A stretch of 64,000 nt of DNA, taken from assembly GCA_024231905.1 (NCBI GenBank), contig JAAEQC010000202.1, positions 5,422 to 69,421 on the forward strand, read 5' to 3'. This DNA comes from a bacterium. GTDB taxonomy: Bacteria > Krumholzibacteriota > Krumholzibacteriia > LZORAL124-64-63. The position numbers were made by a program, and so were the translations under genes. Of the stretch, positions 9,811 through 59,609 are shown one piece after another (the first letter of the stretch is position 1; each line of letters begins with the position of its first letter). The notes under the pieces are model-generated. The model was not told where the DNA came from, ran no database searches, and was given only the letters and a program-made list of their open reading frames with translations.

Positions 9811-10506
9811 CTAGATGTCGAACCGGATGCCGACGCTCACCACGTGACGTATCGCCTTCTCCTGGTCGTGCGTCGGTGACACCAGGTGGTAGTGCAGGTC
9901 GTATTCCCGGGAACCCCGCTGCCATTCGACCCCCAGGGTCCAGCGCAGGGCGGTGAGGGTTCCGTCCGGGATATCCGGATCCGCGCCATCGAGCCGGTGG
10001 AACGTCTCCACGGCGGCATACGGTCTGAACGGACCAGTCCTGCGGAGCTTCGCCTTCGCGCGCAGCCGCAGGACCTGCCGCCGGGGAGTTCCGTCGTCCT
10101 CCTCGGCCCGGAACTCCTGCTGCCACTGGACCCTCAGATCGAGATTCGCCGGCCGGGTCGCCACGCGCAGCCGGGAACCGGCGAAGACGCGATGGCGGTC
10201 CTGGAACAGCCCGTCATTGTCGCGCTCGTGCTTGTAGCGGTAGCCGGCCTCGAAGTGCAGCCAGCTCCGTGTCTTGTGGCGTAGGGCCAGCTCCGGCGCC
10301 ACTAGGTTGAGGCGCGAGATCCCATCGTTCCAGCGAAGGTGCTGGGTCAGTGTCGCGTCGACGCCGAGCGGCGTCTTCAGGCGAACCGCCGCGTCGGTCC
10401 ACAGTTCCGATTCGGCCGGATCCCGCGTCTCTCCCCACGCCACGCCGGCAGGCAGGAGGATGCTGCCGACGACAGCCGCGGCAACCGTCAGGTTCAACCA
10501 CTTCAT
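9811..10506 (-). CDS. DUF2490-like secreted/outer-membrane beta-rich protein
   Basis: Signal peptide MKWLNLTVAAAVVGSILLPAGVAWG, followed by alternating hydrophobic/Arg-rich beta-strand pattern. Last gene of the CotH-VTC-DUF4956 cluster. Confidence 0.5.
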   Translation of the reverse strand: MKWLNLTVAAAVVGSILLPAGVAWGETRDPAESELWTDAAVRLKTPLGVDATLTQHLRWNDGISRLNLVAPELALRHKTRSWLHFEAGYRYKHERDNDGLFQDRHRVFAGSRLRVATRPANLDLRVQWQQEFRAEEDDGTPRRQVLRLRAKAKLRRTGPFRPYAAVETFHRLDGADPDIPDGTLTALRWTLGVEWQRGSREYDLHYHLVSPTHDQEKAIRHVVSVGIRFDI

Positions 10507-13584: not shown

Positions 13585-16059
13585 TCAGCGCACGAGCGCC
13601 ATCCGCCCCGTCAGCGCCGATCCCCCGAAGCACAGGCGCGACAGATAGACGCCGGACGCAACCTCGCCTCCCGACCGGTCCCGTCCGTTCCAGACCGCCT
13701 CGTACCTTCCTTCGGACCGGGTCTCGTCCACGAGGCGGGCCACGAGGCGCCCCTTGATGTCGTAGATGTCCAACCTGACGAGACCGGCTACCGGGATCTC
13801 GTAGCTGATCGTCGTCTGGGGATTGAACGGATTCGGGGCGCACGGCAGCAGCTGCAGGGCGTACGCAGTAGCCCCGGGTATTCCGGAGGCGCCGTCGTTG
13901 CTCGCACCCGGCGTCGGCGTCGCGTAGAACGACCAGGATGCCGCGCCGTCCGGTGTGCGGCCCTCGCTGACGTTGCTCGTCTGCGCGTCGAACACGTAGC
14001 TGTCGATCACTTCGTTCCCGGCGGCCAGGCGGCCGAACAAACCGATCTCCTCGCCGCTGCCGCCGAGCTTGAAATCGGCGTGGAGAGGACCGTCGGAGCC
14101 GTCGCTGTCGCACCACACGAGGAGGAAGTCCCCGGCCCCCAGCAGCGTGTCGGGGAACGCCCACTGGGTCGTCAGGGCCAGATCGTCCGTCAGGAACAAG
14201 CCGCCCATCTCGACCGCCTCGAGGCCGGGGTTGTAGATCTCGACCCAGTCCTCGTACTCGCTGGCCTCGTCCTGGATGCCGGCGTCGTTCAGGGCCACGA
14301 ATTCGTTGATCCACAGGACGATGGATTCAGGCTCCTCGGGATTCAGATTCTCCGCGCCCGGAGTCGCCAGCGACAGCATCTCCCAGTCGCCGGTTCCGTC
14401 GGACCAACGCCCCCAGGGAACGTCGCTCGCGAGGGCGGGGAAGGTCACCTGGTCGATGATCACCGCGCCATCGGTGAGGTAGATACTCTCGCCGTCGGCG
14501 TCGAGCTTGAACGGGGCGTGCAGATCGCCCTCGGCCGTCTCCCCGTCCGCCCAGACGACCACGTATTCGCCCGGGGCCAAGGTCATCACCGGGAAGGCGA
14601 AGTCCGGGGTGCCCTCCAGGAGGTCGGTCAGGCCCAGGCCACCCAGGTCGATGCTCACCGATCCCGTGTTGGCGATCTCGATCCAGTCGTCGTAGTCACC
14701 GGCCTCGTCGGCGACAGTGGCGTCGTTGGACGCCATCACCTCGTTCAGCACCAGGCCCGCCACGGGCGTCCAGGTGCCGATCAGGCCCGACAGATAGTTG
14801 TAACGCGCCGTGACGAAGGTCCCGAGGGCGGGAATCGGCCGGCCGCCCGGTCCTCCGCTGGAGGCGTAAATGGTCGATGTCATGCAGTTCTCGAAGTCGG
14901 TAGTCGAGAACATGGTGTTGGGGTCGGTGTAGACGTACGGGCGGATCAGGTCCCGCAGTTCCTCCATGCGCGCGGTCAGGGTCGTCGGTTCGGCCGCCCC
15001 GGCCATGAGCTTCTGCATGTGTCCCAGGTAGACGTCGACGTACTGGGGAACCGACCACAGATTCTCCGCCAGGGGACGCTCCTCGCCGTACTGGGTGTCG
15101 ACCCAGTAGGGACTCAGCTGCTGCATCTGGGTCGTGGATAGGCCGTACATGTTGAAGATGCCCCAGGCCTCGTTCTGGTCCCACTTGGTGAAGACGAAGC
15201 GGTCGTCCAGGTCCCGGTGGTAGAAGTAGTAGTTGGCGCAACGGCCCGTGTAGCTATCCAGGTTCACCGTGTAATTGTCCACCGCCAGCATGGCCAGGGC
15301 CGAGTTGACGTCGAGCCGGCCATGCAGGCTGTCGGGCAGGGCCGCCGTGGAGGTGTTGTCGACCTGGTCGATGAAGTCCACCAGGTCGGACCAGTCGTTT
15401 GCCGTCTCGTTGGTCTTCAATTCGTAGTTGTCGTAGTAGGAGGACTCGGCGGCGCCCAGGTATTCCATGGTCCCGTAGGGTTCTCCCTTCCACAGGTTGC
15501 CGTCCTCGCTGGCGCCCCAGCGGCTCTCGATGAACTCCTGGTCCTGCTGCTCGACGATGAGATAGAGGCCCCAGTAGGTGCCGTTGATGTACACGGCGGC
15601 GAAGTTTGAGCGGCAAGTGGCCATGCCCAGGGCGTCGCACAGCTCGTAGGTGGTCTTCTCCCGGACGTAGCTGGGATCGAGGTGGCAGTTGTTCAGGCTG
15701 AACTTGTCCAGGCCGTCCACTTCCTGGCCGGCCACGAACTCGTCGATGTCCAGCTTGAAGGACTTCTTGAGCCCGTAGTAGCCCCAGTAGCTGCTGTTAC
15801 CCTTGAAACGCACACCGATGGTCGACAGGTGGGTCGCGTCCCAGTCGAAGGCAGCCTCGATGTAGGGGGGATCGTCGTAGTCCTCGAAGTTCGTGGTCAG
15901 CTGATCCCACCAGTCCGCCTGGTCGAAGGTCAGGTGGATCTCGTGGACGGCGTCGCCGTCGAAGAGGGGATGGGAGGCCGGAGTCAGGGCGGCGCCGGCG
16001 TCTCGGCTCGCGCCGAAGAGTGCGATCGCGACGAGGGCGAGCAGCGTTGCCTGTTTCAT
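13585..16059 (-). CDS. Secreted CotH-domain protein with two lamin-tail-like (LTD) domains and a T9SS-type C-terminal sorting domain
   Basis: Signal peptide MKQATLLALVAIALFGAS; CotH motifs (RFKGNSSYWG, DPSYVREKTT); two LNE(V/F)...DWIEI(A/Y)N LTD repeats; C-terminal NPFNPQTTISYEIP...IYDIKGRLV...ASGVYLSRL. Confidence 0.75.
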   Translation of the reverse strand: MKQATLLALVAIALFGASRDAGAALTPASHPLFDGDAVHEIHLTFDQADWWDQLTTNFEDYDDPPYIEAAFDWDATHLSTIGVRFKGNSSYWGYYGLKKSFKLDIDEFVAGQEVDGLDKFSLNNCHLDPSYVREKTTYELCDALGMATCRSNFAAVYINGTYWGLYLIVEQQDQEFIESRWGASEDGNLWKGEPYGTMEYLGAAESSYYDNYELKTNETANDWSDLVDFIDQVDNTSTAALPDSLHGRLDVNSALAMLAVDNYTVNLDSYTGRCANYYFYHRDLDDRFVFTKWDQNEAWGIFNMYGLSTTQMQQLSPYWVDTQYGEERPLAENLWSVPQYVDVYLGHMQKLMAGAAEPTTLTARMEELRDLIRPYVYTDPNTMFSTTDFENCMTSTIYASSGGPGGRPIPALGTFVTARYNYLSGLIGTWTPVAGLVLNEVMASNDATVADEAGDYDDWIEIANTGSVSIDLGGLGLTDLLEGTPDFAFPVMTLAPGEYVVVWADGETAEGDLHAPFKLDADGESIYLTDGAVIIDQVTFPALASDVPWGRWSDGTGDWEMLSLATPGAENLNPEEPESIVLWINEFVALNDAGIQDEASEYEDWVEIYNPGLEAVEMGGLFLTDDLALTTQWAFPDTLLGAGDFLLVWCDSDGSDGPLHADFKLGGSGEEIGLFGRLAAGNEVIDSYVFDAQTSNVSEGRTPDGAASWSFYATPTPGASNDGASGIPGATAYALQLLPCAPNPFNPQTTISYEIPVAGLVRLDIYDIKGRLVARLVDETRSEGRYEAVWNGRDRSGGEVASGVYLSRLCFGGSALTGRMALVR

Positions 16060-16226
16060 GTCGGGGTACCTCGCTTGTTGGGCGCTTTGCGGCGACGACG
16101 GACATATCACGGCCGAACCCGCGAGTCCCCGATTCCTTTCAGTGTTTTTTGAAACGCGTGATTTTATTGTGACTGTATAAGAACGGGACCCCTTGGATCA
16201 GGGACCCCGTTCGATCATGCGGTTCT

Positions 16227-18698: not shown

Positions 18699-19988
18699 AT
18701 GAAAACCACCGACAGGAATACACACTGGCTGATTCCGCTGACGATCGTAGTCGTTGCGATTGCCGCGGGCTGTTCCGACGACGCGACAAAACCCCCGGTC
18801 GACGACGACGATCCGATCGTGACGGTCACCGGCTATCCGCTCGTCGATACGAACCAGAACCTCTGCTACGCCACGAGCGCCGAGATCGCCGCCCCGGCCG
18901 CCGGTGAGGCCTTCTATGGCCAGGACGCCCAACACGACGGCGCCCAGCCCAGCTACACCGTCAGCGACGACGGACTGACCGTGTACGACAACGTCACGGG
19001 ACTCACCTGGGTCGCCATGCCCGACACCGACGGCGACGGCGTCCTCGAATCCCCCGACGACAAGCTCACCTGGACCGAAGCGCAATCCTACCCCGCCACC
19101 TTGAATGGGTCCGGGTTCGGCGACTACGACGATTGGCGTCTGCCCACCATCAAGGAGCTCTACTCGCTGATCCTCTTCAGCGGCGAGGACGTGGCCCCCG
19201 AGGCTCCATCCGGCGACACGCCGTTCATCGACACCGACGCCTTCGAGTTCGTGTACGGCAACACGGCCGCCATGGAACGGGTCATCGACTCCCAGTACGC
19301 CAGCAGCACCCTGTACGTGGCCCCCTCGGCCGAGGGCCAGCTCCTGTTCGGCGTGAACTTCGCCGACGGCCGCATCAAGGGCTACGGCCTGACCATGCCA
19401 GGCATGGGCGACAAGACCTTCTTCGTCCAGTGCTGCCGCGGCAATACCGACTACGGGGTGAACGACTACGCCGACAACGGCGACGCAACCGTCACCGACG
19501 CCGCCACGGGTCTCATGTGGATGCAGGACGACAGCGGCGTGGGCATGAACTTGGAGGAGGCCCTGGCCTGGGTCGAGGCCCGCAACGCCGAGAGCTACCT
19601 GGGACACGGCGACTGGCGCCTGCCCAACGTGAAGGAACTGGAGAGCATCGTGGACTACACGCGGTCCCCGGCGACCACCGCCTCGGCGGCCATCGATCCG
19701 GTGTTCGACTGCACGGTGATCACCAACGAGGCGGGAGAGGACGACTACGCCTTCTACTGGAGCGGCACGACCCACGTCAGCACCATGGGCGCCATGAATG
19801 CATCCTACGTGGCCTTCGGACGGTCGCTGGGCTACATGAACGGTTCGTGGGTGGACGTGCACGGCGCCGGCTCCCAGCGTAGCGATCCGAAGGAAGGCGA
19901 CCCGGCGGACTTCCCCACGGGCCACGGGCCCCAGGGCGACGCCATCCGGATCTACAACTACGTCAGGCTGGTCAGGGACGCCGGCTGA
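18699..19988 (+). CDS. DUF1566 (Lcl C-terminal domain) lipoprotein
   Basis: Lipobox VAIAAGCSDD; repeated DWRLP(T/N)(I/V)KEL and TGLxW(M/V) motifs characteristic of DUF1566. Confidence 0.65.
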   Translation: MKTTDRNTHWLIPLTIVVVAIAAGCSDDATKPPVDDDDPIVTVTGYPLVDTNQNLCYATSAEIAAPAAGEAFYGQDAQHDGAQPSYTVSDDGLTVYDNVTGLTWVAMPDTDGDGVLESPDDKLTWTEAQSYPATLNGSGFGDYDDWRLPTIKELYSLILFSGEDVAPEAPSGDTPFIDTDAFEFVYGNTAAMERVIDSQYASSTLYVAPSAEGQLLFGVNFADGRIKGYGLTMPGMGDKTFFVQCCRGNTDYGVNDYADNGDATVTDAATGLMWMQDDSGVGMNLEEALAWVEARNAESYLGHGDWRLPNVKELESIVDYTRSPATTASAAIDPVFDCTVITNEAGEDDYAFYWSGTTHVSTMGAMNASYVAFGRSLGYMNGSWVDVHGAGSQRSDPKEGDPADFPTGHGPQGDAIRIYNYVRLVRDAG

Positions 19989-34988: not shown

Positions 34989-37589
34989 TCAGGCGGCTTC
35001 CTCCTTCGCCGTGCGGGCGTGCGCCGCCAAGGTGAACACAGCTTCGTCCGAGTCGAGTTCGACGGTCTGCTCCGCGTGCACCTCCCCCGCCAGGATCAGA
35101 TCCGCCAGCCGGTCCTGCACTTCCCGCTGGATCACCCGCTTGACCGGCCGCGCGCCGAAGGTGGGGTCGTAGCCCAGGGCCGCGAGCCTGGCCACCGCAG
35201 CGTCGGTCGCCGCGAACCCGATCTCCTGCTCGGCCAGGTCGCGGGCCACCTTGGCCAGCTCCAGGCGCACGATCTCGGCGATGAATGTGTCGCCCAGACT
35301 GTTGAATCGGACGATGCCGTCGAGCCGATTGAGGAACTCGGGACGGAAATGGCCGTGCAGTCCCTCCAGCAGTCGCCGCTCGTGCTCGGCCGGGTCCTCG
35401 TCCCCGCGGGTTTCGTAGACAACCTCCTGGCAGAGGTTGCTGGTCATGATCACCAGGGTGTTGCGGAAGTCCACCGCCCGGCCCTTGCCGTCGGTGAGGC
35501 GTCCGTCGTCGAGCAACTGCAGCAGCACGTTCATGACCTCGGGATGGGCCTTCTCCACCTCGTCCAGCAGGATGACGCTGTAGGGGTGGCGGCGCACAGC
35601 CTCGGTGAGCTGGCCGCCGGCCTCGTGGCCCACGTAGCCGGGGGGCGAACCGATCATGCGACTCACTGCGTGGCGCTCCATGTACTCGCTCATGTCCAGT
35701 CGCACCAGGGCGGTCTCGTCCCCGAAGAGCTGTTCGGTGAGGGCCTTGGCCAGCTCGGTCTTGCCCACGCCCGTGGGACCCAGGAAGAGGAACGAACCCA
35801 AGGGCCGGCTGCGGTCCGTGAGCCCCGCGCGAGAGCGGCGGATGGTGCGGGCCACCTGGCCGACGGCCGCGTCCTGGCCCACGACGCGGGCGGTGATGCG
35901 GGTTTCGAGCTCGCGGAGTTTGGCCAGTTCGTCCTCCACCAGGCGCTGGGCCGGGATACCGGTCCACTTGGCCACCAGGAGGGCCACGTCGTCCTCCTCC
36001 ACTTCCTCCTTGAGGAGCGGGCTGTCGCCCTGGATGCGGCGCAGCTCCAGTCGGGCCTGGGACAGCTCGGCCTCCAGGAGGGCTTGGCCCCCGTACTTCA
36101 GTTCGCTGGCCCGGGCCAGGTCGCCGCTGCGTTCGGCCGCTTCCATCTCGAGCTGGAGATTCTCCTGGCGCTTCTGCAGGGTGCGGATGGCGTCGATAGC
36201 GGCCTTCTCCTCCTCCCAGCGGGCCTGGACGGCATCCAGGGCGTCGCGCAGTTCGGTGAGCTGACGATCGATGGACTCACGCCGGACCACGGCCGACTTC
36301 TCGGTCTCCTTCTCCAAAGCCAGGCGCTCCATCTCCAACTGGTTCAGTTGCCGCTGCAGGTCATCCACCTCGGCGGGCACGCTGTCGATCTCCATGCGCA
36401 GGCGACTGGCGGCCTCGTCCATGAGGTCGATGGCCTTGTCCGGGAGCATGCGGTCGGCGATGTAGCGCTGGGAGAGCTTCACCGCCGCCACGATGGCCCC
36501 ATCGGTAATGCGGATGCCGTGGTGCACCTCGTAGCGTTCTTTCAATCCGCGCAGGATGGCCACGGCCTGCTCCCAAGTGGGCTCCGCCACGAGCACCGGC
36601 TGGAAACGGCGTTCCAGAGCCGGGTCCTTCTCGATGTGCTGGCGGTACTCGTCGATGGTGGTGGCGCCGATGCAGTGCAACTCGCCGCGGGCCAGGGCGG
36701 GTTTGAGGATGTTGCTGGCGTCCATGGCTCCGCCAGTGGCGCCGGCCCCCACGAGGGTGTGCATCTCGTCGATGAACAGGAGGACCTCGCCCTCCGACTC
36801 GGTCACCTCCTTGATGACCTTCTTGAGCCGGTCCTCGAACTCGCCCCGGTACTTGGTGCCGGCGATGAGCGCTCCCATGTCCAGGGCGACCACGCGCTTG
36901 CCCTTGAGCCCCTCGGGCACATCGCCTTCCACCAGGCGCCGCGCAAGACCCTCGGCCACTGCGGTCTTGCCCACGCCGGGGGATCCCATGAGCACGGGGT
37001 TGTTCTTGGTGCGCCGGCTGAGGATCTGGATGGTGCGCCGGATCTCCTCGTCCCGGCCGATGATGGGATCGATCTTACCCGCCCGGGCCGCGGCGCAGAG
37101 ATCGGTGGCGTATTCGTCGAGAGCCGAGTCCTCGCCCACGCCGGACTCGTCGTCACCGTCGTAGCCCGCGTTGGCGCCGGTCTGCGTGAAGGCCTGGGCC
37201 AGTTTCGATTCGTCCACGTCGAAGGTGCGCAGGACCGAGCCCGCGCGGCCCTGGTCCGCGGCCAGGGCAAGCAACAACTCGCGCGTGCCCACCATGCCGG
37301 CCGTTCCGGCCCGATTCTGGGCTTCGAGCAGCAGCTTCTGGAACTCGCGGCCGGGATCAGGCACGTCCGCCCGGGCCGCTTGGGGCAAACTCGCCAGCTC
37401 CTGTTCGGCGGTCCGGGCCATGAGACCCGGATCCAACTCGAGGCAACGCAAGGTATTGGTCACGAGGCCGGTTTCGGCCAGGAGCGCCCAGAGCAGATGC
37501 AGGGGCTCCAGCGCGGCGTGCTTCATCTCATATGCCTTGGACTGGGCCTTTTGGAGGGCGTCCATGGCGTTGACGGTCAGATTCTTCAT
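34989..37589 (-). CDS. clpB: ATP-dependent chaperone ClpB
   Basis: 866 aa; Clp N domain; two AAA+ modules ([18 protein letters not shown]); long coiled-coil middle domain. Confidence 0.95.
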
Positions 37590-44104: not shown

Positions 44105-45190
44105 CTAGCGGAGCAGGGTCATGGAGCGGTGGCTCACCTGTCCGCCGGCTTGGAGCCGCAGCAGGTAGACGCCCGATCCCACGGCCCGGCCCGCGGTGTC
44201 GGTGCCGCGCCAGGTGGTCTCGTGGTCGCCGGCCGTGGCCGTTCCCGAGTGGAGCTGCCGCACCAGGCGCCCGCGCAGATCGACCACAGCCAGGTCGGCG
44301 TCGCCGTCCGCAGCCAGGGACCAGCGGATGACCGTGGCCGGATTGAAGGGATTGGGCGTGACCGAGGCGATATCGGCGGCGAGGGCCGACGGCGCGTCGG
44401 TCCCGGAGACGTCCATGGCCACCATGGCCGCCGCCGCCGCGTACCAGGCCAGGGCCATGCGCTCACTTCCCGCCGCATTCAGGTGCCCGCCGTCGGAGGA
44501 GTAGTCCGGATTCAGCATCTGATAGGACTCGCCCCCGCTCTCGAAGAGCACCGGCGTACCATCCGGCTTGTGGCACTCGATATCGGCCACGTCCAGCAGG
44601 ATGAGTCCCTTGGCCGCACAGTGCTCGCGCACCACGTCGTTGAAGCGGTTGATACTCACGTTGAACGAGGAGTCGCCGAACCGCAGCGGCATGGTCGCGT
44701 ACACGAAGATCGTGCCGGGGAACTCGGTCTCCAGCTGAGTCATGGAATCCAGGTATGGTTGGGGATCGGCACGGTCGTCGTCATAGCAGAATTTGTTGAG
44801 GACGATGTCGACCGCCGGCCGGCTCCAACCCTCGGTGCGGAGCGAGGTCTCGAACTGGTCGATCTTCTCCTGCCAGCCCGGGTTGCCGCGGTAGGATTCG
44901 TACACCGTTCCCGGGGTCGTGGTCGCCGGCGCCGAAGACCCGGGCGCGACGGTCTCGTACGCGATCTGGTAGCGGTCCGGATCCGCGGCGTGAAGGTCGC
45001 GCAGCCCGATGACCATGTTCCAGCCGACGGAGGCATGGGCGAAGAACCAGCGCTGCTGGCCCACCTTTTCCATGACGTCGCCGGGCAGATGCTTCGTCTG
45101 GTCGACGAAGTTGTGATCGATGATGATGGCCGCGGCCGGTTGAACGAGGCAGACGGACAGCAGCAGGGTCCACAGGAGGGAACGGGTCAT
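44105..45190 (-). CDS. Secreted protein (possible SGNH/esterase-like N-domain) with T9SS-type C-terminal sorting domain
   Basis: Signal peptide; C-terminal ...TPNPFNPATVIRWSLAADGDADLAVVDLRGRLVRQL...GSGVYLLRL. Confidence 0.55.
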   Translation of the reverse strand: MTRSLLWTLLLSVCLVQPAAAIIIDHNFVDQTKHLPGDVMEKVGQQRWFFAHASVGWNMVIGLRDLHAADPDRYQIAYETVAPGSSAPATTTPGTVYESYRGNPGWQEKIDQFETSLRTEGWSRPAVDIVLNKFCYDDDRADPQPYLDSMTQLETEFPGTIFVYATMPLRFGDSSFNVSINRFNDVVREHCAAKGLILLDVADIECHKPDGTPVLFESGGESYQMLNPDYSSDGGHLNAAGSERMALAWYAAAAAMVAMDVSGTDAPSALAADIASVTPNPFNPATVIRWSLAADGDADLAVVDLRGRLVRQLHSGTATAGDHETTWRGTDTAGRAVGSGVYLLRLQAGGQVSHRSMTLLR

Positions 45191-49555: not shown

Positions 49556-50368
49556 TCAGGCGTCGGCCTCCTGGATTCGATCCAGCACCCACGCCACCAC
49601 GTTCGACTTGCCGAACACGACGTTGTACCGCGGCCCCTTCCCCTCACCCGCCGGACTCGACCCCACGCACACGAAGCGGCCGCCGGCCTCCTGGACGAGC
49701 ACCTCGGTGGCCGCCATGTCCCAGATGCTGACGTCGTAGTCCACCATGGCGCCGATCCGGCCGTCGATGGCCAGGGCGTGGCCGAAACAGTCGCTGTAGG
49801 TGCGCACGTATGCCTCGGAGCGCATGAGATGGTCGAAGACGGCTTCCTGGCCGCAGGACACGAACTGGTGGCGGTCGCCGGTGGCGATGATCTCCTGGTC
49901 CATGGGGACGAGGGGTTCGTCGGTCTGGATTCGGACCAGCTCGCCGTTGCAACGAGCGCTGAGGCCCGTCGCGCCGGCGTAGAGCAGGTCCAGGCCGGGC
50001 AGGGCGATGACGCCGACGACCGGTCGTCCTTCGTGGCGCAGGGCGAGCAGGGTACCGTACAGGGGGATGCGGCGGCCGAAGCTGCGGGTGCCGTCGATGG
50101 GATCGACGATCCATTGGAAGGGGGAGTCGGTGGTGGTTTCGGGGCGTTCTTCGCCGAGGATGGCGTGGGTGGGGTAGGCGGCGCGGATGCGGGAGCGGAT
50201 GAGGTCTTCTACGGCGAGGTCCATGGCGGTGACCGGGGAGCCGTCGGGTTTGGTTTCGGTGGCGAGGTTGCGGGGATCGTCCGCAAGGATGAGGGTGCGG
50301 GCTTCCTGGGCGATGGACTCGGCGGTTCGGAGGTAATGCTGGAGGTCTGGATCGGGGATACGAGACAT
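49556..50368 (-). CDS. Inositol monophosphatase family protein (SuhB/HisN-like)
   Basis: IMPase motifs: WIVDPIDGT, and the downstream metal-binding GDR / DYD blocks. Confidence 0.8.
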   Translation of the reverse strand: MSRIPDPDLQHYLRTAESIAQEARTLILADDPRNLATETKPDGSPVTAMDLAVEDLIRSRIRAAYPTHAILGEERPETTTDSPFQWIVDPIDGTRSFGRRIPLYGTLLALRHEGRPVVGVIALPGLDLLYAGATGLSARCNGELVRIQTDEPLVPMDQEIIATGDRHQFVSCGQEAVFDHLMRSEAYVRTYSDCFGHALAIDGRIGAMVDYDVSIWDMAATEVLVQEAGGRFVCVGSSPAGEGKGPRYNVVFGKSNVVAWVLDRIQEADA

Positions 50369-50648: not shown

Positions 50649-51185
50649 CTACGCGATGGTGCTGAGCGACTCCATGATCCGCGTGCTCATGTTCTGATAG
50701 GCGACGATCTCCACCAGGCTGAGGATGTCCTCGTCTGAAAATCCCTCGCCGGACAGGCGCTCGACGTCGGCCGAGCTGCAGGCGTCCGGCGCGCGCGTGA
50801 TCTTGACGGCGAACTCCGCCATCAGCCGTTCGCGAGGGCTCAGATCCGCCTTGGTGTAATCGTCCGCAACCTGGTCGGCCAGTTCCTGATCCCGTGCCAC
50901 TCGACCGAGGGCTTCCGTATGGGAGGCCGTTCAGTGCACGCAGCCGATCAGGGACGACGTGACCAGCGCCAGGATCTCCTTCTCGCGGGGCGTGAACCCG
51001 GCGTCGCGGTAGACCGCGGTGCAGAGGTCGTCGATGCGCTCGGCCACGCGGGGGGTCAGGCTCGTCAGACGGGTGAGGTCGGAGATGTCGCCCGTCATGG
51101 CGTTACGGGTCTTTTTAAAGAGCTGCTTCGCCGCTTCGTTCGTGGTGTCGTCGGGCTCGATCTGGATCCAGGGGTTCCAGGGCAT
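50649..51185 (-). CDS. AhpD-like (carboxymuconolactone decarboxylase family) protein with in-frame TGA at 50931-50933; candidate selenoprotein (CxxU)
   Basis: Track ORFs 50931..51254 and 50649..50900 are in the same frame, separated only by TGA. Read-through gives ...LIGCVH-U-TASH..., matching the AhpD catalytic motif CSHCVASH with the second Cys replaced by TGA. ATG at 51183-51185 with RBS AAGGAG; total 178 aa, normal AhpD length. Confidence 0.6.
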
Positions 51186-51243
51186 GGGGGCTCCTTCGGT
51201 GAAGATGTCTCGTGCCAGTTCGATGACCCGCGCGCCGGCCGGT

Positions 51244-53103
51244 CTACGGCGCACTCTCGACCACCTGCTCGGTCGTCCCTGCCGTGGCCGCCTCTACCAG
51301 CCAGTGGCGCAACCGGGCCGAGTCGTCCACGGCGCCGATGCGCTCCAACTGCTCCGGGCTGATCTCCACTCCGCGGGCTTCGAGCAGGGTCACGACGCTC
51401 TCGGCCAGGGCCCGCGCCTCCTGCTGCGCCGCCTGCTCGGTGTCCTGCTTGCGGGCAATCTCTGCCGGCACCGGGCGCATCCGGTAGCGGTCGCCAGTCG
51501 CGGCAACAATGGTCTGTAGCCACTCCTGCGGGTAGCCCTCGAAGCGGGGCTTGCCGAACTCGTCCTTCACGTTGCCGTCGAGGTACTTGTAGAGCAGCTC
51601 GTCGAAGAGGCGGGTCCAGCGAGCCACGGTTTCGTTGCCGGCCGTGGCGGTATACTGCGTCAGGTAGTCCCGGGCCAGGCGGGGCGATTGCTCATAGAGC
51701 GCGACCGCCGCCGCGTCCACCTCGGGCACCTCGCCCAGGAAGCGACCCTCCAGCTCCTGCTGCACGCGCCGGATGTCGACGATCATATCCGCGTAGCGCG
51801 AGTAGGCGTAGTTAGCGACGCGGTTGAAGGCCCAGAACGCCGCGTCGTAGTCGACGTCGTGGTACGAGCCGGTGCCCACGCGAAACGAGTAAGGCGCCTC
51901 GGTGATGCCGGCGTAGGCGGGGAAGTAGACGGTGGTGTAGGTGTCGTCGACGCCGAACCAGTTGATGCCGCCGATGGGGTCGGGCAGCCAGGATCGCATC
52001 TGGGCGACGAATGAGAAGCCGGTCTGCTGGGTGGAGACAGCGCGCTCGTGGAAGTAGCGCTCGCCGTCAACCTCCCAGCGCATGGGCCGCCAGCGGTAGG
52101 GCAGCTTGTAGGGGCCGGCGCCGATGTCGGTGGTCATGTCCAGCGCCGTGTCCTCGTAGTGGTCGCGCATCAGGCCCATGACGTCGGCCACGGTCAGCTT
52201 CTTCGCGGGACGGATCCACAGCGGCACGGGCTCGGCGCCGGGTTCGCCCATGATCCAGCCCTCGCCGTGGTCGCCGCCGGGAGCGGTGCGCTCGAACATG
52301 CACCACACGCGGGCCTCGCAGGCGCGGCGCGTGCCGAAGGCGTCGGGGTCGTACACGTCGGCGAAGCTGAAGTCCTCGTCTGCGCCCTGGTACCAGCCCT
52401 GCTCGCGGGCGAAGTCGATCACGTCCGGGGCGTAGAGCGCGTTCTCGTCGTCAGCCAGGGGGAATTGGCGGATGCGGGCAGCGTTGGCGTGGCCGCAGAT
52501 GTAGCCGTCCGGCACGCGGCGGGCCACCCAGACGGCGCCCTTCTCCTCGGGGCCCTTGCCGATCAGGTCCATGATCCAGACCTCGTCCGGATCGCCGACG
52601 GAGAACGTTTCGCCCTTGCTGTAGTACCCGTACTCGTCCACCAGCGCGGCCATGATCTCGATGGCCTCGCGGGCGGTCCGCGCGCGCTGCAGCGTGACGT
52701 AGATGAGGCTGCCGTAGTCGAGGATCGCATCGAAATTGCGCAGCTCGGTGCGGCCGCCGTAGGTGGTCTCGGCCATGGTCACCTGGTGCTCGTTCATGTT
52801 GCCGACCACCGCGTACGTCACCGGCGCCTGCGCGATCTCGCCCAGGTACTTGCCCGTATCCCACTCGTAGATGGGCATCATCGTGCCCGGGGCGTGCCGG
52901 CCCGGCGGCCGGTAGTACAGCTCGCCGTAGAAGCCGTGGGAGTCAGCCGTGTAGGTGACCATGGTCGATCCGTCGGCCGAGGCGTCGTTGGTGATCAGGA
53001 AGTTCGTGCAGGCCGACGCCAGGGGAGTGGCGGTGAGGGCGACCGCGAGCGCCAGGGCGCCCACTACGAGCGGGACGGGGCGAGCGGGAATGAGGGTAGG
53101 CAT
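51244..53103 (-). CDS. Peptidase C69-family dipeptidase, secreted
   Basis: Signal peptide ends ...PLASA followed by the CTNFL N-terminal Cys nucleophile. About 620 aa, C69 length. The track extension to 53259 is rejected. Confidence 0.7.
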   Translation of the reverse strand: MPTLIPARPVPLVVGALALAVALTATPLASACTNFLITNDASADGSTMVTYTADSHGFYGELYYRPPGRHAPGTMMPIYEWDTGKYLGEIAQAPVTYAVVGNMNEHQVTMAETTYGGRTELRNFDAILDYGSLIYVTLQRARTAREAIEIMAALVDEYGYYSKGETFSVGDPDEVWIMDLIGKGPEEKGAVWVARRVPDGYICGHANAARIRQFPLADDENALYAPDVIDFAREQGWYQGADEDFSFADVYDPDAFGTRRACEARVWCMFERTAPGGDHGEGWIMGEPGAEPVPLWIRPAKKLTVADVMGLMRDHYEDTALDMTTDIGAGPYKLPYRWRPMRWEVDGERYFHERAVSTQQTGFSFVAQMRSWLPDPIGGINWFGVDDTYTTVYFPAYAGITEAPYSFRVGTGSYHDVDYDAAFWAFNRVANYAYSRYADMIVDIRRVQQELEGRFLGEVPEVDAAAVALYEQSPRLARDYLTQYTATAGNETVARWTRLFDELLYKYLDGNVKDEFGKPRFEGYPQEWLQTIVAATGDRYRMRPVPAEIARKQDTEQAAQQEARALAESVVTLLEARGVEISPEQLERIGAVDDSARLRHWLVEAATAGTTEQVVESAP

Positions 53104-53805: not shown

Positions 53806-56800
53806 CTACTTGACGAGGGTCACCTTCATCAGATCCGCCACCCCGGCCGCTCGCAGTCTCGCCAGGTACACCCCGCTGGCTGCACGCGAACCCTGAGCAT
53901 CCAGACCGTCCCATACCGCCTCGCCGGGACCGGCCCGCCGGTCTTCCATGACAAGCGTCCGCACGAGGCGTCCCTGCAGGTCGTACAGGGCCAGGTGGCA
54001 GGGTCCGTCCTGCTCCATCTCGAAAGAAATCGTCGTGGTGGGGTTGAAGGGGTTGGGCGAGGCTGCCACGATGCGCGTGGCCTCGATGGCCGGCACTTCT
54101 TCCTCCACGCCACTCACGCCCTCGGCCACCCACAGGGAGTAGCTGCCTTCCTTGGCCAGTTCGCCGGCGTCCGTCTTCCACACCGCCAGGCAGGCGCTGC
54201 CGCTGACGGGCACGTTGACGATCATGCGCTCGGTCACGCCGTCGGGCTCGAGCCAGGTGATCTCGCCCTCGAGGGCGTCGTCCTTGCCGAAGTACTCGGC
54301 ACCCTGGTAGAAGCTCATGCCCCAGTCCACGCCGGTGCCGTTGTCCTTCAAGGTGATCAGATGCGGACCCGGGTCGAGCAGGAACTCGTGGAGATTCAAC
54401 ATGCGGCCGGCGCCCATGGCATAGGGACCCATCTCGCCGGGACCGGCGATGCCGCCCCAAGTGGATCTTACTTCCTGCAGGTCGTAGCTCGTCAGGAACT
54501 GGTCCACGTCGTCCAGGACGCCCACGTCGTGGGGCACGTTGTCGGCCAGGCGGTCGTTCACCAGCACGAAGTCGATCTGGCCGTCGCCGGCGAAGCTCTC
54601 CGCGAGTACCGACGGGCCGAACCCATCCTGGGTGCCCGAAAGCGCCGTGTGGAGTTGCAGATCCGTGTTCACGAACGTGCTCGGGGGCATGACCGCGGCG
54701 CCGGTCCACCAGCGGTTGCCGCCGATGGGCGGAATGTAGGGCACGCGCCAGCCATCACAGTTCCAGTACAGGGTCTCGCCGCCGTCACAGGCGTCCCAGC
54801 CGCCCTCACGGTCGGGCAGGCGCTCGAAGCCGGTAACGTTGACGGAAGCGTTGGTGGGCAGCGTGGGCGGCGACCAGCAGTACTGGCGCGCCGAATCGTT
54901 GTTCCGCTCGACGCTCTCGTCCAGGTCGTCCAGGTAATCCATGTTCAGGGTCAGGGTGTGGCGGCCGCCGGGGATGGTCCAGGGCGTGCCGGCGCGATCG
55001 AGATTGCGCACGTTCCGTGAGCTACCCGCAGCCAGGGACGAGAACTGGCGCAGGCCCATGTCGCCCATGCCGTCGATGTCCAGGCCCCAGGACACGGTGT
55101 CCGCGCTGGCCAAACCGGCGTTGCGGGCGCCGTAGTTCAGCCAGGTCAGTGGCTGGCCGCCGTGCAGCGTATCCGGCAGCGGGCAGTTGAACAACGCGGA
55201 CGTGTCGTGAGGCTGGGGCACGATTGGTGCGTGCCAGCCCGTATACGTAGTAGGCTCCAGATCCGGCCGTGCCTTGTACAGCCCCACGTTCACCGCCAGG
55301 CTCGACGGGTGCTCCACCCGGTTGCCGTACACGACGCAGCAGTACTCGCCGGTCACCGCGAGATTCATGTCGATGCGGGCCAGACCCTCGGCGTCGGTGG
55401 CCACCGGGTCGAGCAGATCGGCCAGGTCACCATTCTCGAAGTCCGGCAGCAGCCAGCCCATGTGGACCGGACCGTCTTCCGGATCGCTGTACAACGTGAG
55501 CGTGGCCGGGCCCAGGTCGCCCGGGCCCACGTGGAACTGGAACATGGCCAACCGCTGGACGGTGTAAGGCGTCGACGGCTCGATGCCGAAGTCGAAGGGA
55601 TAGGGGCTCTCGTGGAGGTGGGCGATGCGGTAATCCTCGGTGAGGGCTGACCAGAAGTTGATGATCCCCACGTCCCAGGGCACGTGCCCCATGGTGTGGG
55701 TGTTGACCAGGAGAGCATGGAGATCGCTGTCGTAGCTGGTGGCGGCCACATTGAAACCGAAGGCCGCCTCAGGGTCGTCCGAGGCCGGGTGCAGGCGCAG
55801 CATATAGTTGTTCAGGCCGTCGTCGGACAGGCGCTCGCCCCACACGGCGACCCACTCGTAGCTTGCCGACGGTTGGATCCGTACACCGTCGCAGTGGTGC
55901 CAAGGGAAAGGACCGTACAGGTAGTCCTGGTCGTTGAGCGGCGGCACGGGGCGGGTCCAGGTGGTCAGGGGCGGCAAGTAGTCCCCCTGCCAGCACATCT
56001 GCACCGCGGTGACGTTGTCCGTCTCGTCGGACTCGGCCACCGCATTCAGGGCGTCGGCCCTCACCCGCAGCACGTGGCGGCCGCCGGGCACCTGGTACGG
56101 TCCGAAGTTGTAGGAGCCGTTCCAGTCGTAGGGCGGGATGGTCCACAGGCTGCGCGAGTCGAGGAAGTCGCCGTCCAGGTAAAGATCCATGCGCGAGGCG
56201 CCGGCCGTGACCGGCCCCGTGTTCCGGTAGCAGGCGTTGAGCCAGGTGGAGTCGGCCTCGCCGATCAGGAAGGTCGGCGCAGGCACGTTCGTCCAACTGG
56301 CATCGTCGACGCTGCGCGGCACCAGGGACCCCGCCCAACCCGGTTTCACGTCGAACTCGAAATTCGGCAGGTTGGAGAAGTTGGCCGTGGCGCCGTTGGT
56401 GCCGTCGTAGGGGGTGTCGAAGGTGGCCGAGAGAACCGTGGCGTCGCTGAACTCCACGATGATCGTTCCGCCCATGAGATCGGAGCCGTAGGGCATGCCG
56501 GTGGCGCCCATGTCCAGATCCATGGTGAAGCGGAAGTAGTCGCCGCCGTCGAAGCCCGTGAAGGTCGAACCGAAGTCCTGGGTGTCCGTCCCCGCGGGCA
56601 CGTCGAAGTAGAAGCTGTAGGACGTCACCCCGTCGTTCTGGGGCGAGCACATGGACGTACCGTCGGCGTCGAGCCAGACGTTCGTCGCGTTCCAGTCCCA
56701 CCAGGCGTCCACCAGGGTCACGCCTTCATTGGTGGTGAAGGTGATGTCGATCCAGTTGCCGCCCTCGCCGCAGTTGCTGGCGGTGGACGACCCTTGGATC

Positions 56801-56862
56801 ACGGCGGACGCGGACGACGCGGCCAGCATCAGGGCCAAGAGAATCATGACGAACGGTTTCAT
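53806..56862 (-). CDS. Giant (~1018 aa) secreted protein with CARDB-like domains and T9SS-type C-terminal sorting domain
   Basis: Signal peptide MKPFVMILLALMLAASSASA; CARDB-like segments (...GGRHVLRVRADALNAVAESDETDN...; ...GGRHTLTLNMDYLDDLDESVERNNDSA...); CTD NPFNPTTTISFEM...LYDLQGRLV...ASGVYLARL. Confidence 0.7.
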   Translation of the reverse strand: MKPFVMILLALMLAASSASAVIQGSSTASNCGEGGNWIDITFTTNEGVTLVDAWWDWNATNVWLDADGTSMCSPQNDGVTSYSFYFDVPAGTDTQDFGSTFTGFDGGDYFRFTMDLDMGATGMPYGSDLMGGTIIVEFSDATVLSATFDTPYDGTNGATANFSNLPNFEFDVKPGWAGSLVPRSVDDASWTNVPAPTFLIGEADSTWLNACYRNTGPVTAGASRMDLYLDGDFLDSRSLWTIPPYDWNGSYNFGPYQVPGGRHVLRVRADALNAVAESDETDNVTAVQMCWQGDYLPPLTTWTRPVPPLNDQDYLYGPFPWHHCDGVRIQPSASYEWVAVWGERLSDDGLNNYMLRLHPASDDPEAAFGFNVAATSYDSDLHALLVNTHTMGHVPWDVGIINFWSALTEDYRIAHLHESPYPFDFGIEPSTPYTVQRLAMFQFHVGPGDLGPATLTLYSDPEDGPVHMGWLLPDFENGDLADLLDPVATDAEGLARIDMNLAVTGEYCCVVYGNRVEHPSSLAVNVGLYKARPDLEPTTYTGWHAPIVPQPHDTSALFNCPLPDTLHGGQPLTWLNYGARNAGLASADTVSWGLDIDGMGDMGLRQFSSLAAGSSRNVRNLDRAGTPWTIPGGRHTLTLNMDYLDDLDESVERNNDSARQYCWSPPTLPTNASVNVTGFERLPDREGGWDACDGGETLYWNCDGWRVPYIPPIGGNRWWTGAAVMPPSTFVNTDLQLHTALSGTQDGFGPSVLAESFAGDGQIDFVLVNDRLADNVPHDVGVLDDVDQFLTSYDLQEVRSTWGGIAGPGEMGPYAMGAGRMLNLHEFLLDPGPHLITLKDNGTGVDWGMSFYQGAEYFGKDDALEGEITWLEPDGVTERMIVNVPVSGSACLAVWKTDAGELAKEGSYSLWVAEGVSGVEEEVPAIEATRIVAASPNPFNPTTTISFEMEQDGPCHLALYDLQGRLVRTLVMEDRRAGPGEAVWDGLDAQGSRAASGVYLARLRAAGVADLMKVTLVK

Positions 56863-56975
56863 GGCTAATCCCCCCATCGGCGTGCGGCGGGCCTCGGTCG
56901 ATTCAGAGAGGCCCGGAGTGTGTTCCCACCAGGAGGAACGCGACGGGGCGACGACGATCACAGGAACGAGAAAAT

Positions 56976-59609
56976 TCAGCGGCGGGCGCGGATCCAGGCT
57001 CCGATGGCGAACAGGGCCAGGGCGGCCGCCCAGGGCCAGCGCCGAGAGCGGCGCTGCAGGGGCACGGTGATGTCGCCGTCGCCCACCAGGACGAAGGCCG
57101 CCCAGTGGCGCGGCGCACAGGTCTCCGGGTCCAGGAAGCAGGCGTGGCGGGCCCGATCGAGGGCGGCGGCCGCCGTCAGGCCGTCGGCCAGGCCCTCGTA
57201 GAATTGGGTCGTAACGCGGAAGGCGACGGCGTCGTCCACCGGCCAGAGGGTGGCCAGCACGGCCGGGACATTGGCGGCCAGGAAACCTCCCGCCAGTCCG
57301 ATCAGGCCTTCGCCTCCCACCACACGCGTGCCGGCGGTGGTGCAGCCGGCCAGCACGGCCAGGCGCGCGTTCAGAGGGAGAGCGGCCACGTCGGCGGCCC
57401 GCAGGACGTCGTCCGGATCCGGCCCCAGGGTGATACCCGTCAGCCAGGGCTGATGGACATGGAGCATGGTGTGGGCAGCCAGGTGAAGGACGCCGGCCTC
57501 GGCCCATTCCACCTCCACCGGCGTACGCACGTGGCGCAACTGCCCGGTCAGCCAGGCGATTTCCTGCTCCGCCCCGGGCAAAGGCCCACCGCCCCCGGAA
57601 TCCGGTCCGGCGACCGCCAGGATCGACGCAGGACCGGTCGCGGCGGGAGGCTCGTGCCGGAGACGCGCCAGCACGCCCGCTCCCGGAATACGGGTCGATG
57701 CACCACGCCAGGGCAGCAGCGCCGCCGGCAAGCGGTGCCAGCTGCCGTCGGGGCACCACCACACGGTGCCGGCGTCGGCCGCCAGCCGCCGGATCGAAGC
57801 CGGCCAGGCCGCCACCAGGTCACCGGCCAGCCGCACGGCCGGTCCCGGGTCGTCCAGGGCGGGACTGCGCACCACGTCGGCCAGACGCCGCAGCCGAGGC
57901 TCGATCTCCCGCCGGCCGGGAATCGCAGCCACGAAGGCCGTGTCCCGGGTGACACAGAACAGGACGCTCAAGCGGTCCCCTTCCACCAGGTCGAGGAAGA
58001 CCTCATCCGGCTTGAGCACCTGACGACGGAAATCCGCGAGATCCGGCGCGGCCACCGCACCGCCACCGGCCCCTGGTCCGAGCATGCGCTCGCGCAGGGT
58101 GCGCGCCTTGTACCGTTGGATCCATTCCCAGGCCGCTTCGAGGCCCCCGGGGGCCTCCATACATACCGCCGCCGCGTTGGCGAACAAGCTGCCGGACACG
58201 GTGCCCCGGTGCTCGCGCCACACGGGATCGGTGGGCCAGGCCCGGACCCGTTCCCAGTTGGCGATGGCCCGGCCGAAGACCGCCAGGGCCGAGTCGGGGC
58301 GATCCAGGGCCGCCTCGGCGCGGGCCAGGTGGGTGAGCAGGACCACGAGTTCGGCCTCGCCGCCGGCCTCCCGGGCCGCCAGGATCGCCGGCCGCAACCG
58401 GGCCGCCGCTCCGGCCGGATCCCCGCTGTCCACCAGCGCCACGCCCAGCAGAGCGGACACCCGCAGTTCGAGGGAGGTGGCCCCCGCGCCGTCCTCCAGC
58501 ACCCGCGCCAGCGTCGTCGCCGCAGCCACCAGACTATCCCGCTCGATCAGGGCCCGCGCCAGGCGCAGACGGGTCTCCGTGGCCAGCAGACGGGATAGCA
58601 TCTCCCCCGCGCCCAGAACCCGCCGGCAATGGTCCGCCGCCGCACCGGGACGCCCCTGCTCCAACCAGGTATCCGCCAGGCTGTTGCCGGCCAGCACCTC
58701 CAGATCGCGCAGACCATACTCGCGGCAGACGGCGAGTACCGAGTCGAAGACCGCCTCCGCCTCGACGTATCTGCCCTGCATGACTCGGGCCTTGGCCAGG
58801 TCGATGCTCGGCACCAGCCCTTCCCGCCGGTGCCCGCTCTCCCGGTGGATGGCCACGGAACGGGCGAAGAGATCCACTGCCCGACCGGGATCGCCGAGCA
58901 TCAGATCCAGGCGTCCGAGCTGATCCAGGGCCATGGCCTCGTTCACCGCGTCACCGGCGCCCTCGACCAGGGCCAGCACGTTGGCGAAGGCCGTGCGTGC
59001 CCCCCGGAAGTCGCCGGCCTGACGCAGGGCCAGTCCGCGTCCGTTCCAGGCCCACACGGCGCCCCGGGTTTCCCCGTACCGCTGCAGGACGCCCGCCGCC
59101 CGGGCATAGGTCGCACCCGCCTCCACAGCCCGCCCCTGGAGGTAATGGCCGTAGGCGATTCCAACCCAGGCCCAGCCCAGGTGCAGCGAGTCGGCGGCGG
59201 CTTCGGCTCTTCGTGCCAGTTCGGCGTAGAGATCCGTCGCTTCGGCGCCGCGCCCCTGCGTACCCACCGAGACACCCAACCAGCGCAGGCATTGCAGGTG
59301 GCGGAGGGTGTCGCGGCGGACGACGGCCACCGCCATGCCCTCGCGCAGATCGCCCTCGGCCTGGCGCGCCATGCCGAAGCTCGCGCGGGTCGCACCCCGG
59401 ATCAGCAGGAGGTTCAGGAGGCCCGTCGTGTCGCCTGCAGCGCGGGCGGCCGTGATGGCCGGGCCCGCCAGGCTGTCGACCATGTCCGGACGACCAGCGG
59501 AGCGCCAGGCGAGCAGGGAATCGGGGAGACCGTCACGAGCGGCGGGAGGCTGTGCCGCGGCGGACGCAGCCAGGAGCAGGAGCGGCAGCAGGCGGACCGC
59601 AAGGCGCAT
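56976..59609 (-). CDS. Periplasmic TPR-repeat plus CHAT (caspase-like protease) domain protein with C-terminal TM anchor
   Basis: Signal peptide MRLAVRLLPLLLLAASAAAQ; about 450 aa of TPR-like helical repeats; CHAT domain (...VLHLAAHT... catalytic His, ...LAGCTTA... Cys); C-terminal WPWAAALALFAIGAWI hydrophobic helix. Confidence 0.75.
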   Translation of the reverse strand: MRLAVRLLPLLLLAASAAAQPPAARDGLPDSLLAWRSAGRPDMVDSLAGPAITAARAAGDTTGLLNLLLIRGATRASFGMARQAEGDLREGMAVAVVRRDTLRHLQCLRWLGVSVGTQGRGAEATDLYAELARRAEAAADSLHLGWAWVGIAYGHYLQGRAVEAGATYARAAGVLQRYGETRGAVWAWNGRGLALRQAGDFRGARTAFANVLALVEGAGDAVNEAMALDQLGRLDLMLGDPGRAVDLFARSVAIHRESGHRREGLVPSIDLAKARVMQGRYVEAEAVFDSVLAVCREYGLRDLEVLAGNSLADTWLEQGRPGAAADHCRRVLGAGEMLSRLLATETRLRLARALIERDSLVAAATTLARVLEDGAGATSLELRVSALLGVALVDSGDPAGAAARLRPAILAAREAGGEAELVVLLTHLARAEAALDRPDSALAVFGRAIANWERVRAWPTDPVWREHRGTVSGSLFANAAAVCMEAPGGLEAAWEWIQRYKARTLRERMLGPGAGGGAVAAPDLADFRRQVLKPDEVFLDLVEGDRLSVLFCVTRDTAFVAAIPGRREIEPRLRRLADVVRSPALDDPGPAVRLAGDLVAAWPASIRRLAADAGTVWWCPDGSWHRLPAALLPWRGASTRIPGAGVLARLRHEPPAATGPASILAVAGPDSGGGGPLPGAEQEIAWLTGQLRHVRTPVEVEWAEAGVLHLAAHTMLHVHQPWLTGITLGPDPDDVLRAADVAALPLNARLAVLAGCTTAGTRVVGGEGLIGLAGGFLAANVPAVLATLWPVDDAVAFRVTTQFYEGLADGLTAAAALDRARHACFLDPETCAPRHWAAFVLVGDGDITVPLQRRSRRWPWAAALALFAIGAWIRARR

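Follow-up and report, generated by a model that had tools for sequence, protein, structure and literature searches.

A probable AhpD-like selenoprotein gene with a conserved hairpin behind its in-frame TGA, annotated in GenBank as a truncated fragment

This study examined an interrupted gene on the minus strand of a 64-kb stretch of the bacterial contig JAAEQC010000202.1 (64,000 nucleotides; hereafter the window, in whose numbering positions are given unless another locus is named). The gene carries a TGA at the codon where AhpD-like proteins have the second cysteine of their CxxC active site. Sequence comparison indicated, with a probability of about 0.88, that a single gene here encodes a 178-residue AhpD-like thiol/selenol oxidoreductase, a member of the TIGR01926 family ("peroxidase-related", COG2128), in which UGA85 would be decoded as selenocysteine (Sec, U).

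Gene layout and reading frame

Two minus-strand open reading frames (ORFs), 50931..51254 and 50649..50900, were both on the ORF list of the window and lie in the same frame. They are separated by the TGA at 50933..50931 and 10 sense codons (50930..50901), and reading through yields ...LIGCVH*TASHTEALGRVARDQ..., ending at the TAG at 50651..50649. The resulting gene spans 537 nt with this single in-frame TGA, which becomes residue 85 of a 178-aa product in the context G-C-V-H-TGA-T-A-S-H. An earlier note on this DNA, made from its sequence, had described the same layout and read-through length; both were confirmed, and the start was refined. The predicted start codon is the ATG at 51185..51183 (MPWNPW...) and not the upstream GTG at 51254, because every full-length homolog begins at the same M-x-W; at the other end, homologs finish at the same ...ESLSTI(x). 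The features of the gene, all on the minus strand, are as follows.

50649..51185, minus: complete AhpD-like (TIGR01926) gene, predicted selenoprotein, from ATG 51185..51183 to TAG 50651..50649; 178 aa, Sec at residue 85
51191..51197, minus: Shine-Dalgarno-like GAAGGAG, 5 nt before the ATG; read from the sequence, with a putative function
50976..50978, minus: Glu70 codon GAG, 11 residues before Cys82; equivalent to the relay Glu118 of Mycobacterium tuberculosis AhpD and invariant in the alignment
50919..50942, minus: active-site motif Cys82-Val-His84-Sec85-Thr-Ala-Ser-His89, which with Glu70 holds the five AhpD proton-relay positions
50931..50933, minus: in-frame TGA, predicted Sec codon (Sec85), at the position of the second Cys of CxxC
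50778..50780, minus: Cys136 codon TGC in a P-[DN]-A-C motif; an extra Cys, invariant in close homologs

Within the active-site region, G81, H84, S88 and H89 were invariant in the homolog alignment. Cys136 could be a third redox-active residue. The solved structures with Cys at the Sec position (6k40, 2prr and 2oyo) do not have it, and the related locus L015 is also without it. A six-frame scan of the window revealed no other convincing TGA with coding-like sequence on both sides, and no further convincing selenoprotein gene.

Family membership

Profile scores of the read-through protein were obtained with Cys substituted at the TGA. The NCBIfam model TIGR01926 "peroxidase-related enzyme" matched residues 5-176 of 178 at 122.2 bits (cutoff 81.8), and the Pfam model CMD (PF02627) gave 49.7 bits (cutoff 23), in agreement with the AhpD-like identity proposed in the earlier note. 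The structure 6k40 in the Protein Data Bank (PDB), "alkyl hydroperoxide reductase AhpD", aligned with residues 6-175, spanning the TGA, at E = 9e-22; the other aligned structures were 2prr, 2oyo, 3c1l and 2pfx ("uncharacterized peroxidase-related proteins"). In these alignments the C-x-Y-C-x-x-S-H of the solved Cys homologs corresponds to C-V-H-TGA-T-A-S-H, so that the TGA takes the place of the second Cys of CxxC. Distant relatives likewise have Cys there, and the placement of the stop at the second catalytic Cys, already suggested in the earlier note, is thereby upheld.

The AhpD-like CXXU proteins were first reported as a new selenoprotein family from the Sargasso Sea, with 27 sequences assigned to COG2128 (Zhang, Fomenko & Gladyshev 2005, PMC1088965). 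In the Global Ocean Sampling analysis, AhpD-like 1 was among the most abundant families, with 299 Sec forms and 902 Cys homologs (PMC2398784); the family is given as "AhpD-like protein, CxxU" in a 2026 review (PMC13188914) and is also listed in PMC9312934. The suggestion that AhpD-like proteins form a reported bacterial selenoprotein family thus agrees with the published catalogues (PMC1088965, PMC2398784, PMC13188914). The window gene shows every testable defining feature of this family. It is a genuine but ordinary member of a family known since 2005, and nothing about it overturns current understanding.

The name given in GenBank points to gamma-carboxymuconolactone decarboxylase, and this assignment was rejected. 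That enzyme is treated as a separate family without the CxxC proton-relay motif (PMC3141380), and the read-through protein has the full AhpD-type relay motif; the name is a superfamily label only.

Conservation of the TGA

A set of related DNA loci was assembled from species-representative genomes (22 loci) and metagenomes (80 loci). Because either Cys or Trp was accepted at the site by the search patterns, the sampling was not biased against Cys forms. Among these 102 loci the homologous codon was TGA in 97, the site was uncovered in the remaining 5, and a sense codon was found in none. The loci span at least 8 phyla and 35-69% GC; carriers include Desulfobacterales, Desulfobulbaceae, Desulfocapsaceae, Myxococcota, Anaerolineaceae, Ignavibacteriales, the FCB group, Zixibacteria, Calditrichaeota and Gemmatimonadetes. 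Even a Gemmatimonadetes copy only 36% identical to the window protein has TGA. Acidobacteriota are also in the set, but their locus, L018, does not cover the site. The neighbouring Cys82 codon was TGT in 55 loci and TGC in 33; its free variation shows that the DNA of the region is not simply frozen.

An exhaustive profile search of 1.84 billion representatives placed a single true Cys ortholog, P0136 (226 bits), in its top tier, and the next tier consisted of halves cut at the TGA. Full-length relatives appeared below about 118 bits, with CxxC in 90 of the 114 matches to E-x11-C-xx-C-xxx-H. P0136 shares 52% identity with the window protein, and the site is TGT in its DNA (L103). This ortholog (L103 1328..1867, JGI Ga0598260_0144606), the only one of its kind found, lies on a low-GC contig and keeps the extra Cys in the form P-N-K-C. 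The comparison of orthologs called for in the earlier note therefore returned a conserved TGA and one Cys ortholog with TGT, not random stops or frameshifts.

The sequence beyond the TGA also behaves as coding sequence. The 93 codons that follow it are intact and share 74-83% amino-acid identity with the closest homologs; the proportion of nonsynonymous differences (pN) was 0.11-0.21, against a saturated synonymous proportion (pS) of 0.64-0.97. This ratio refers to the downstream codons only, the N-terminal register being shifted by a one-codon deletion in the window copy. As estimated from these substitutions, the 93 codons are under strong purifying selection. GC content at third codon positions (GC3) downstream of the TGA is 0.80, which is coding-like.

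In three loci, L017 (~9970-10306), L018 (~9937-10273) and L099 (267-658), a well-conserved C-terminal half goes with an N-terminal half that has been lost, replaced or put out of frame; decay of the copies or chimeric assembly may account for this.

The downstream hairpin

Just behind the TGA lies a hairpin that is predicted to act as a selenocysteine insertion sequence (SECIS). Its elements, both on the minus strand, are given below.

50896..50912, minus: predicted SECIS apical hairpin GCC-CUC-[GGUC]-GAG-U-GGC; 6-bp stem, one bulged U on the 3' strand, 4-nt loop starting GG
50876..50929, minus: possible extended lower stem, CGGCCUCC ... GGA...GGCCG; present in the minimum free energy (MFE) fold and weakly supported

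The hairpin, GCCCUCGGUCGAGUGGC, begins exactly 18 nt after the UGA, with its loop at 24 nt, and the exact sequence occurs once in the window. Published criteria for bacterial SECIS (bSECIS) elements are a loop of 3-9 nt, a stem of 4-16 bp, a G in the first two loop positions, a spacing of 16-37 nt and an MFE of -7.5 kcal/mol or lower (PMC13188914). With its 4-nt GGUC loop, 6-bp stem, 24-nt spacing and -8.1 kcal/mol, the window hairpin falls within every one of these limits.

Its conservation at the DNA level is extreme. Across 75 unique homolog genes, the synonymous-codon entropy of the five hairpin codons at +7 to +11 (GCC CTC GGT CGA GTG) was about 0-0.2 bit, whereas 45 further conserved codons of the gene with 4- or 6-fold degeneracy averaged 1.72 bit. 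Of 95 loci with the TGA, drawn from genomes of 35-69% GC, 91 have the hairpin unchanged or almost unchanged, and its stem-closing pair covaries, being A-U in 20 sequences and G-C in 18. Together with the TGA in 97 of 102 loci, these frozen synonymous sites lie far beyond chance, as the earlier note had supposed of a stop at this one position; the hairpin that it proposed has likewise proved to be a conserved element 18 nt after the UGA that fits the published bSECIS model throughout.

The Cys ortholog L103 provides a natural contrast. At the place of the hairpin it reads ACT GAA AAA CTG GAA AAG ATA and forms no hairpin; the encoded peptide is T-E-K-L-E-K-I, as opposed to x-E-A-L-G-R-V in the Sec forms. 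The hairpin and its "ALGR" peptide thus travel with the UGA and are dispensable for the protein, since the Cys ortholog is without both. Support for the extended lower stem is slighter: in 67 homologs 74.6% of cells pair, with modest covariation, and RNAalifold does not recover it.

Two further hairpins were observed. A second match to the hairpin pattern, with two mismatches (GCCCTCGGCCGAGGGGG), lies at 19321..19337 on the minus strand of the window; it is at chance level, with 9 of 100 shuffles giving at least 2 matches, and no in-frame TGA was seen with it. In the Gemmatimonadetes metagenome-assembled genome (MAG) with the 36%-identical copy (L021 672..1103), the motif reads G-C-H-Y-TGA-V-R-H-H and is accompanied by a different hairpin, CGCGGAG-GGU-CUCCGCG. 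Its G-G-U loop lies at +22 to +24 from the UGA, which is nearer to the spacing of Escherichia coli fdhF than to the hairpin of the main clade.

Proposed mechanism

By established bacterial Sec decoding, SelB carrying Sec-tRNA(Sec) would bind the GGUC-loop hairpin while the ribosome stands at UGA85, and the delivery of Sec there would compete with release factor 2. The full-length product would then fold as one all-helical AhpD-type domain. The M. tuberculosis AhpD proton relay consists of Glu118, Cys130, His132, Cys133 and His137, and such a relay has been defined for PA0269 too (PMC3141380); these residues map to Glu70, Cys82, His84, Sec85 and His89 of the window protein (E-x11-C-x-H-C-x3-H). 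In the M. tuberculosis enzyme Cys133, the second of the pair, is the exposed nucleophile and targets Cys61 of AhpC, with Cys130 partly buried (PMC6626918); the partner Cys is attacked in its oxidised form, and the first Cys acts as the resolving residue. By analogy, Sec85 may be the attacking selenolate, activated via His89, Glu70 and water, and Cys82 may resolve it to a selenenylsulfide that would be recycled by a reductant. The partner or substrate may be a peroxide, a peroxiredoxin or another disulfide, none of them singled out by a conserved neighbouring gene. The protein is not a canonical ahpC-linked AhpD, since no linkage to ahpC or a peroxiredoxin was found and the ahpD_dom model TIGR00778 scored 24.6, below its cutoff of 27.8.

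Weighing the readings of the TGA

The stop could be a lesion, a Cys codon (TGC/TGT) having mutated to TGA in this lineage and leaving at most a non-functional 84-residue fragment. The GenBank entry, which has the N-terminal fragment only, would suit such a pseudogene, as would the absence of visible Sec machinery from the window and the disrupted look of a few relatives (L017, L018, L099). A lesion of one lineage is hard to reconcile with the same TGA in 97 of 102 loci from many phyla, with 93 downstream codons that remain in frame and intact under strong purifying selection, or with a window hairpin that is itself intact and a downstream GC3 that is coding-like. Alternatively, the locus might make two small proteins, the N-terminal one of 84 aa and another of 83 aa starting at GTG 50900; both ORFs exist mechanically, and many such halves are found in databases. 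The 10 codons before that GTG, however, encode the conserved T-A-S-H-x-E-A-L-G-R with the relay His89, no ribosome-binding site precedes the GTG, and solved homologs form one domain spanning the junction. Because the downstream codons are selected, one domain spans the junction and His89 falls between the TGA and the next start, a pseudogene is very unlikely and a pair of small proteins even more so.

Two other explanations accept that the UGA is read. The codon might be translated not, or not only, as Sec, with Cys or Trp inserted by a near-cognate or mischarged tRNA, particularly under selenium limitation. Sequence does not reveal the inserted residue, metagenome gene callers give W at the site (though as an artefact of code choice), and no Sec machinery is visible in the window. 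Against this, homologs have Cys at the position and never Trp, the SECIS-type hairpin accompanies TGA and is missing where the codon is TGT, the family stands in the catalogues of selenoproteins, and a tRNA-Sec adjoins one ortholog; non-Sec read-through is accordingly improbable, though a shade less so than a pseudogene. A reassigned code (4 or 25), in which TGA would be an ordinary Trp or Gly codon, could draw on the W at the site in seven database homologs. It can practically be dismissed: of the window's 34 ORFs that are confidently coding, 20 stop at TGA, and these ORFs use 310 TGG codons; no TGA of the window other than the one at codon 85 lies within coding sequence, and the carriers belong to many standard-code phyla.

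Several observations count against decoding of UGA85 as Sec in the window gene, or against parts of that picture. Neither selA, selB, selD nor tRNA-Sec was found in the 64-kb window (tblastn with E. coli SelA, SelB and SelD; ARAGORN; Rfam), where ARAGORN detected no tRNA of any kind. No fetched Sec-form relative shares the lineage of the window, the locus L002 having 39% GC against 67%. The folding energy is ordinary for the GC content (z = -0.45 over 60 nt and -1.0 for the 24-nt hairpin of -8.1 kcal/mol); as such scores are not significant in a GC-rich context, folding energy was dropped as an argument and the case rests on comparative data. RNAalifold on 67 homologs recovered only the top 3 bp of the hairpin, because it is invariant and bulged, and base-pair covariation is not scorable inside so invariant a sequence. 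When the whole window was scanned against Rfam at gathering thresholds, neither a SECIS family nor tRNA-Sec was matched, and the segment 50840..50960, scanned permissively, yielded noise only. Bacterial SECIS elements are poorly covered by Rfam, which makes this null uninformative. On the side of function, the enzyme activity and partner of the subfamily are assigned by analogy only, and in Burkholderia thailandensis AhpD the first Cys is more important than the second (PMC6626918).

Sec machinery did appear beside a relative. L002, an uncultured bacterium whose ortholog is 74% identical, has a tRNA-Sec (anticodon TCA) at 12343..12433 on the minus strand, 1.8 kb downstream of that ortholog, supported by ARAGORN and by Rfam RF01852 at 68.9 bits. 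No selA, selB or selD was detected in its 20-kb locus with E. coli probes, and tblastn with E. coli SelA, SelB and SelD against all fetched loci gave no matches. L002 was considered as a relative of the window organism and rejected, the two differing in GC (39% vs 67%) and having only the AhpD-like gene in common.

Public annotation of the gene and its relatives

The GenBank protein MCP4574057.1 ("carboxymuconolactone decarboxylase family protein", 107 aa) corresponds exactly to the N-terminal fragment up to the TGA (50931..51254, minus strand). The entry begins at a GTG farther upstream, in overlap with the end of the peptidase gene before it; its start and its end are both wrong. The earlier note had expected annotation pipelines to miss the gene or to call it a pseudogene; this did not hold, as GenBank instead contains a 107-aa N-terminal fragment with a wrong upstream start.

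The relatives have fared similarly. Fifteen proteins were returned by a first homology search, of which 7 were full-length and read "GCVHWTASH" and 8 were fragments; five of the fragments end at "GCVH", and three are C-terminal pieces that begin at or after the site. Many further halves were among the database copies in the profile search. The family is stored either as full-length proteins with a spurious Trp or as separate N- and C-terminal halves (P0001-P0007, P0009-P0015, P0137-P0146 and similar). Since the "W" proteins have TGA at this codon, the W comes most simply from gene callers applying a TGA=Trp code. The GenBank entry is a mis-annotation of a routine kind, and it offers a concrete, easily corrected example of selenoprotein genes polluting protein databases.

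Relatives with two TGA codons

Six loci read G-TGA-x-H-TGA-T-A-S-H, that is, U-x-x-U: L082 (~2790-2805), L084 (~530), L086 (~1129), L087 (~1707), L092 (~3243) and L094 (~611). The protein P0007 reads GWAHWIASH and suggests the same form, being known from the protein alone. The six loci have diverged deeply among themselves and, in a neighbour-joining tree, make up a grade beside a CxxU clade. The same hairpin is present in all of them; its distances to the first and the second UGA, which would be 33 and 24 nt, both fit the bSECIS range of 16-37 nt. UxxU is not listed for the family in the selenoproteome papers and reviews consulted, which give it only as CxxU with one Sec.

A broader joint reading of these data is tentative and, on balance, doubtful. 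It would make this clade of TIGR01926 proteins almost obligately Sec-containing (97 Sec forms against one Cys ortholog sampled), with one ultra-conserved 17-nt SECIS across at least 8 phyla and 35-69% GC; the UxxU variants, in which one hairpin serves two UGAs 9 nt apart, would be a diselenide-forming AhpD; and the window copy would be the first evidence for Sec decoding in Krumholzibacteriota. If true, it would add a new, minor variant and offer a natural system well suited to the flexibility of SECIS spacing. It does not change what the window gene is.

Gene neighbourhood and other features of the window

The AhpD-like gene is flanked in the window by a C69 peptidase and an inositol monophosphatase. 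When 113 flanking proteins of the window and of 28 relatives were compared all-vs-all by BLASTP, no neighbour family recurred, and synteny was seen only between near-identical genomes. An inositol-monophosphatase-family gene lies directly downstream in the same orientation both in the window (49556..50368, minus) and in L032 (3733..4509, plus; 40% GC); this arrangement, common to these two only, may be a coincidence.

Elsewhere, the window contains two adjacent genes with a CotH kinase domain, and a FlgD_ig-like C-terminal domain ends the second CotH protein, a 361-aa protein and a 1318-aa CARDB protein (loci 11943..13343, 13585..16110, 44105..45190 and 53806..57762, all minus). These C-termini would fit an FCB-type secretion sorting domain. 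The ClpB of the window (34989..37589) is 73-82% identical to proteins named Candidatus Krumholzibacteria, which puts the contig near that group and makes it the likely phylum.

Significance

The main value of this result is practical: the public record MCP4574057.1 is truncated and has a wrong start codon, and seven homologs bear a spurious Trp at the catalytic position. The comparison set is in addition an unusually clean case of a coding-region SECIS, with synonymous sites frozen across phyla and a natural Cys ortholog lacking both the hairpin and its peptide. The gene also implies selenium use in redox defence by a poorly known candidate phylum, probably Krumholzibacteriota, for which no selenoprotein report was found in the literature. 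The U-x-x-U relatives may add slightly to the catalogue of diselenide proteins.

Comparison with known systems

The E. coli fdhF SECIS is the best-characterised bacterial SECIS; its bulge is on the 5' strand and its stem starts 11 nt after the UGA. Both it and the window hairpin lie in the coding region just past the UGA and have a GGUC loop and one bulged upper-stem pyrimidine, whereas the window element carries its bulge on the 3' strand, with a stem starting at 18 nt. As regards the E. coli element, the resemblance to bacterial SECIS elements drawn in the earlier note is only partial, holding for the loop and not for the side of the bulge or the start of the stem.

M. tuberculosis AhpD (PDB 1GU9/1KNC type), an adaptor that reduces AhpC, belongs with the window protein to the all-helical CMD/AhpD superfamily. 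The two share the five-residue relay, including the His inside the motif (C-S-H-C there, C-V-H-U here), and the predicted Sec occupies the place of the exposed nucleophile Cys133. They differ in that sequence similarity is very low outside the two-helix motif and that no ahpC or peroxiredoxin gene is adjacent, in the window or in relatives. The solved proteins 6k40, 2prr (Ralstonia eutropha), 2oyo (Deinococcus geothermalis), 3c1l and 2pfx have the same subfamily architecture (~180-197 aa) with the motif at the same position. Their motif is C-x-Y-C: Cys stands where the window protein would have Sec, the third residue is Tyr and not His, and the Cys136 of P-D-A-C is absent.

The closest match is the AhpD-like selenoprotein family itself (COG2128/YciW, TIGR01926). 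The window protein hits the same domain model above the curated cutoff and has the same CxxU with a single predicted Sec at the second position. In both, a SECIS-type hairpin with G in the apical loop lies directly downstream, and Cys homologs are widespread. No substantive difference separates the two; the window copy comes from a high-GC MAG, and its GenBank entry is truncated.

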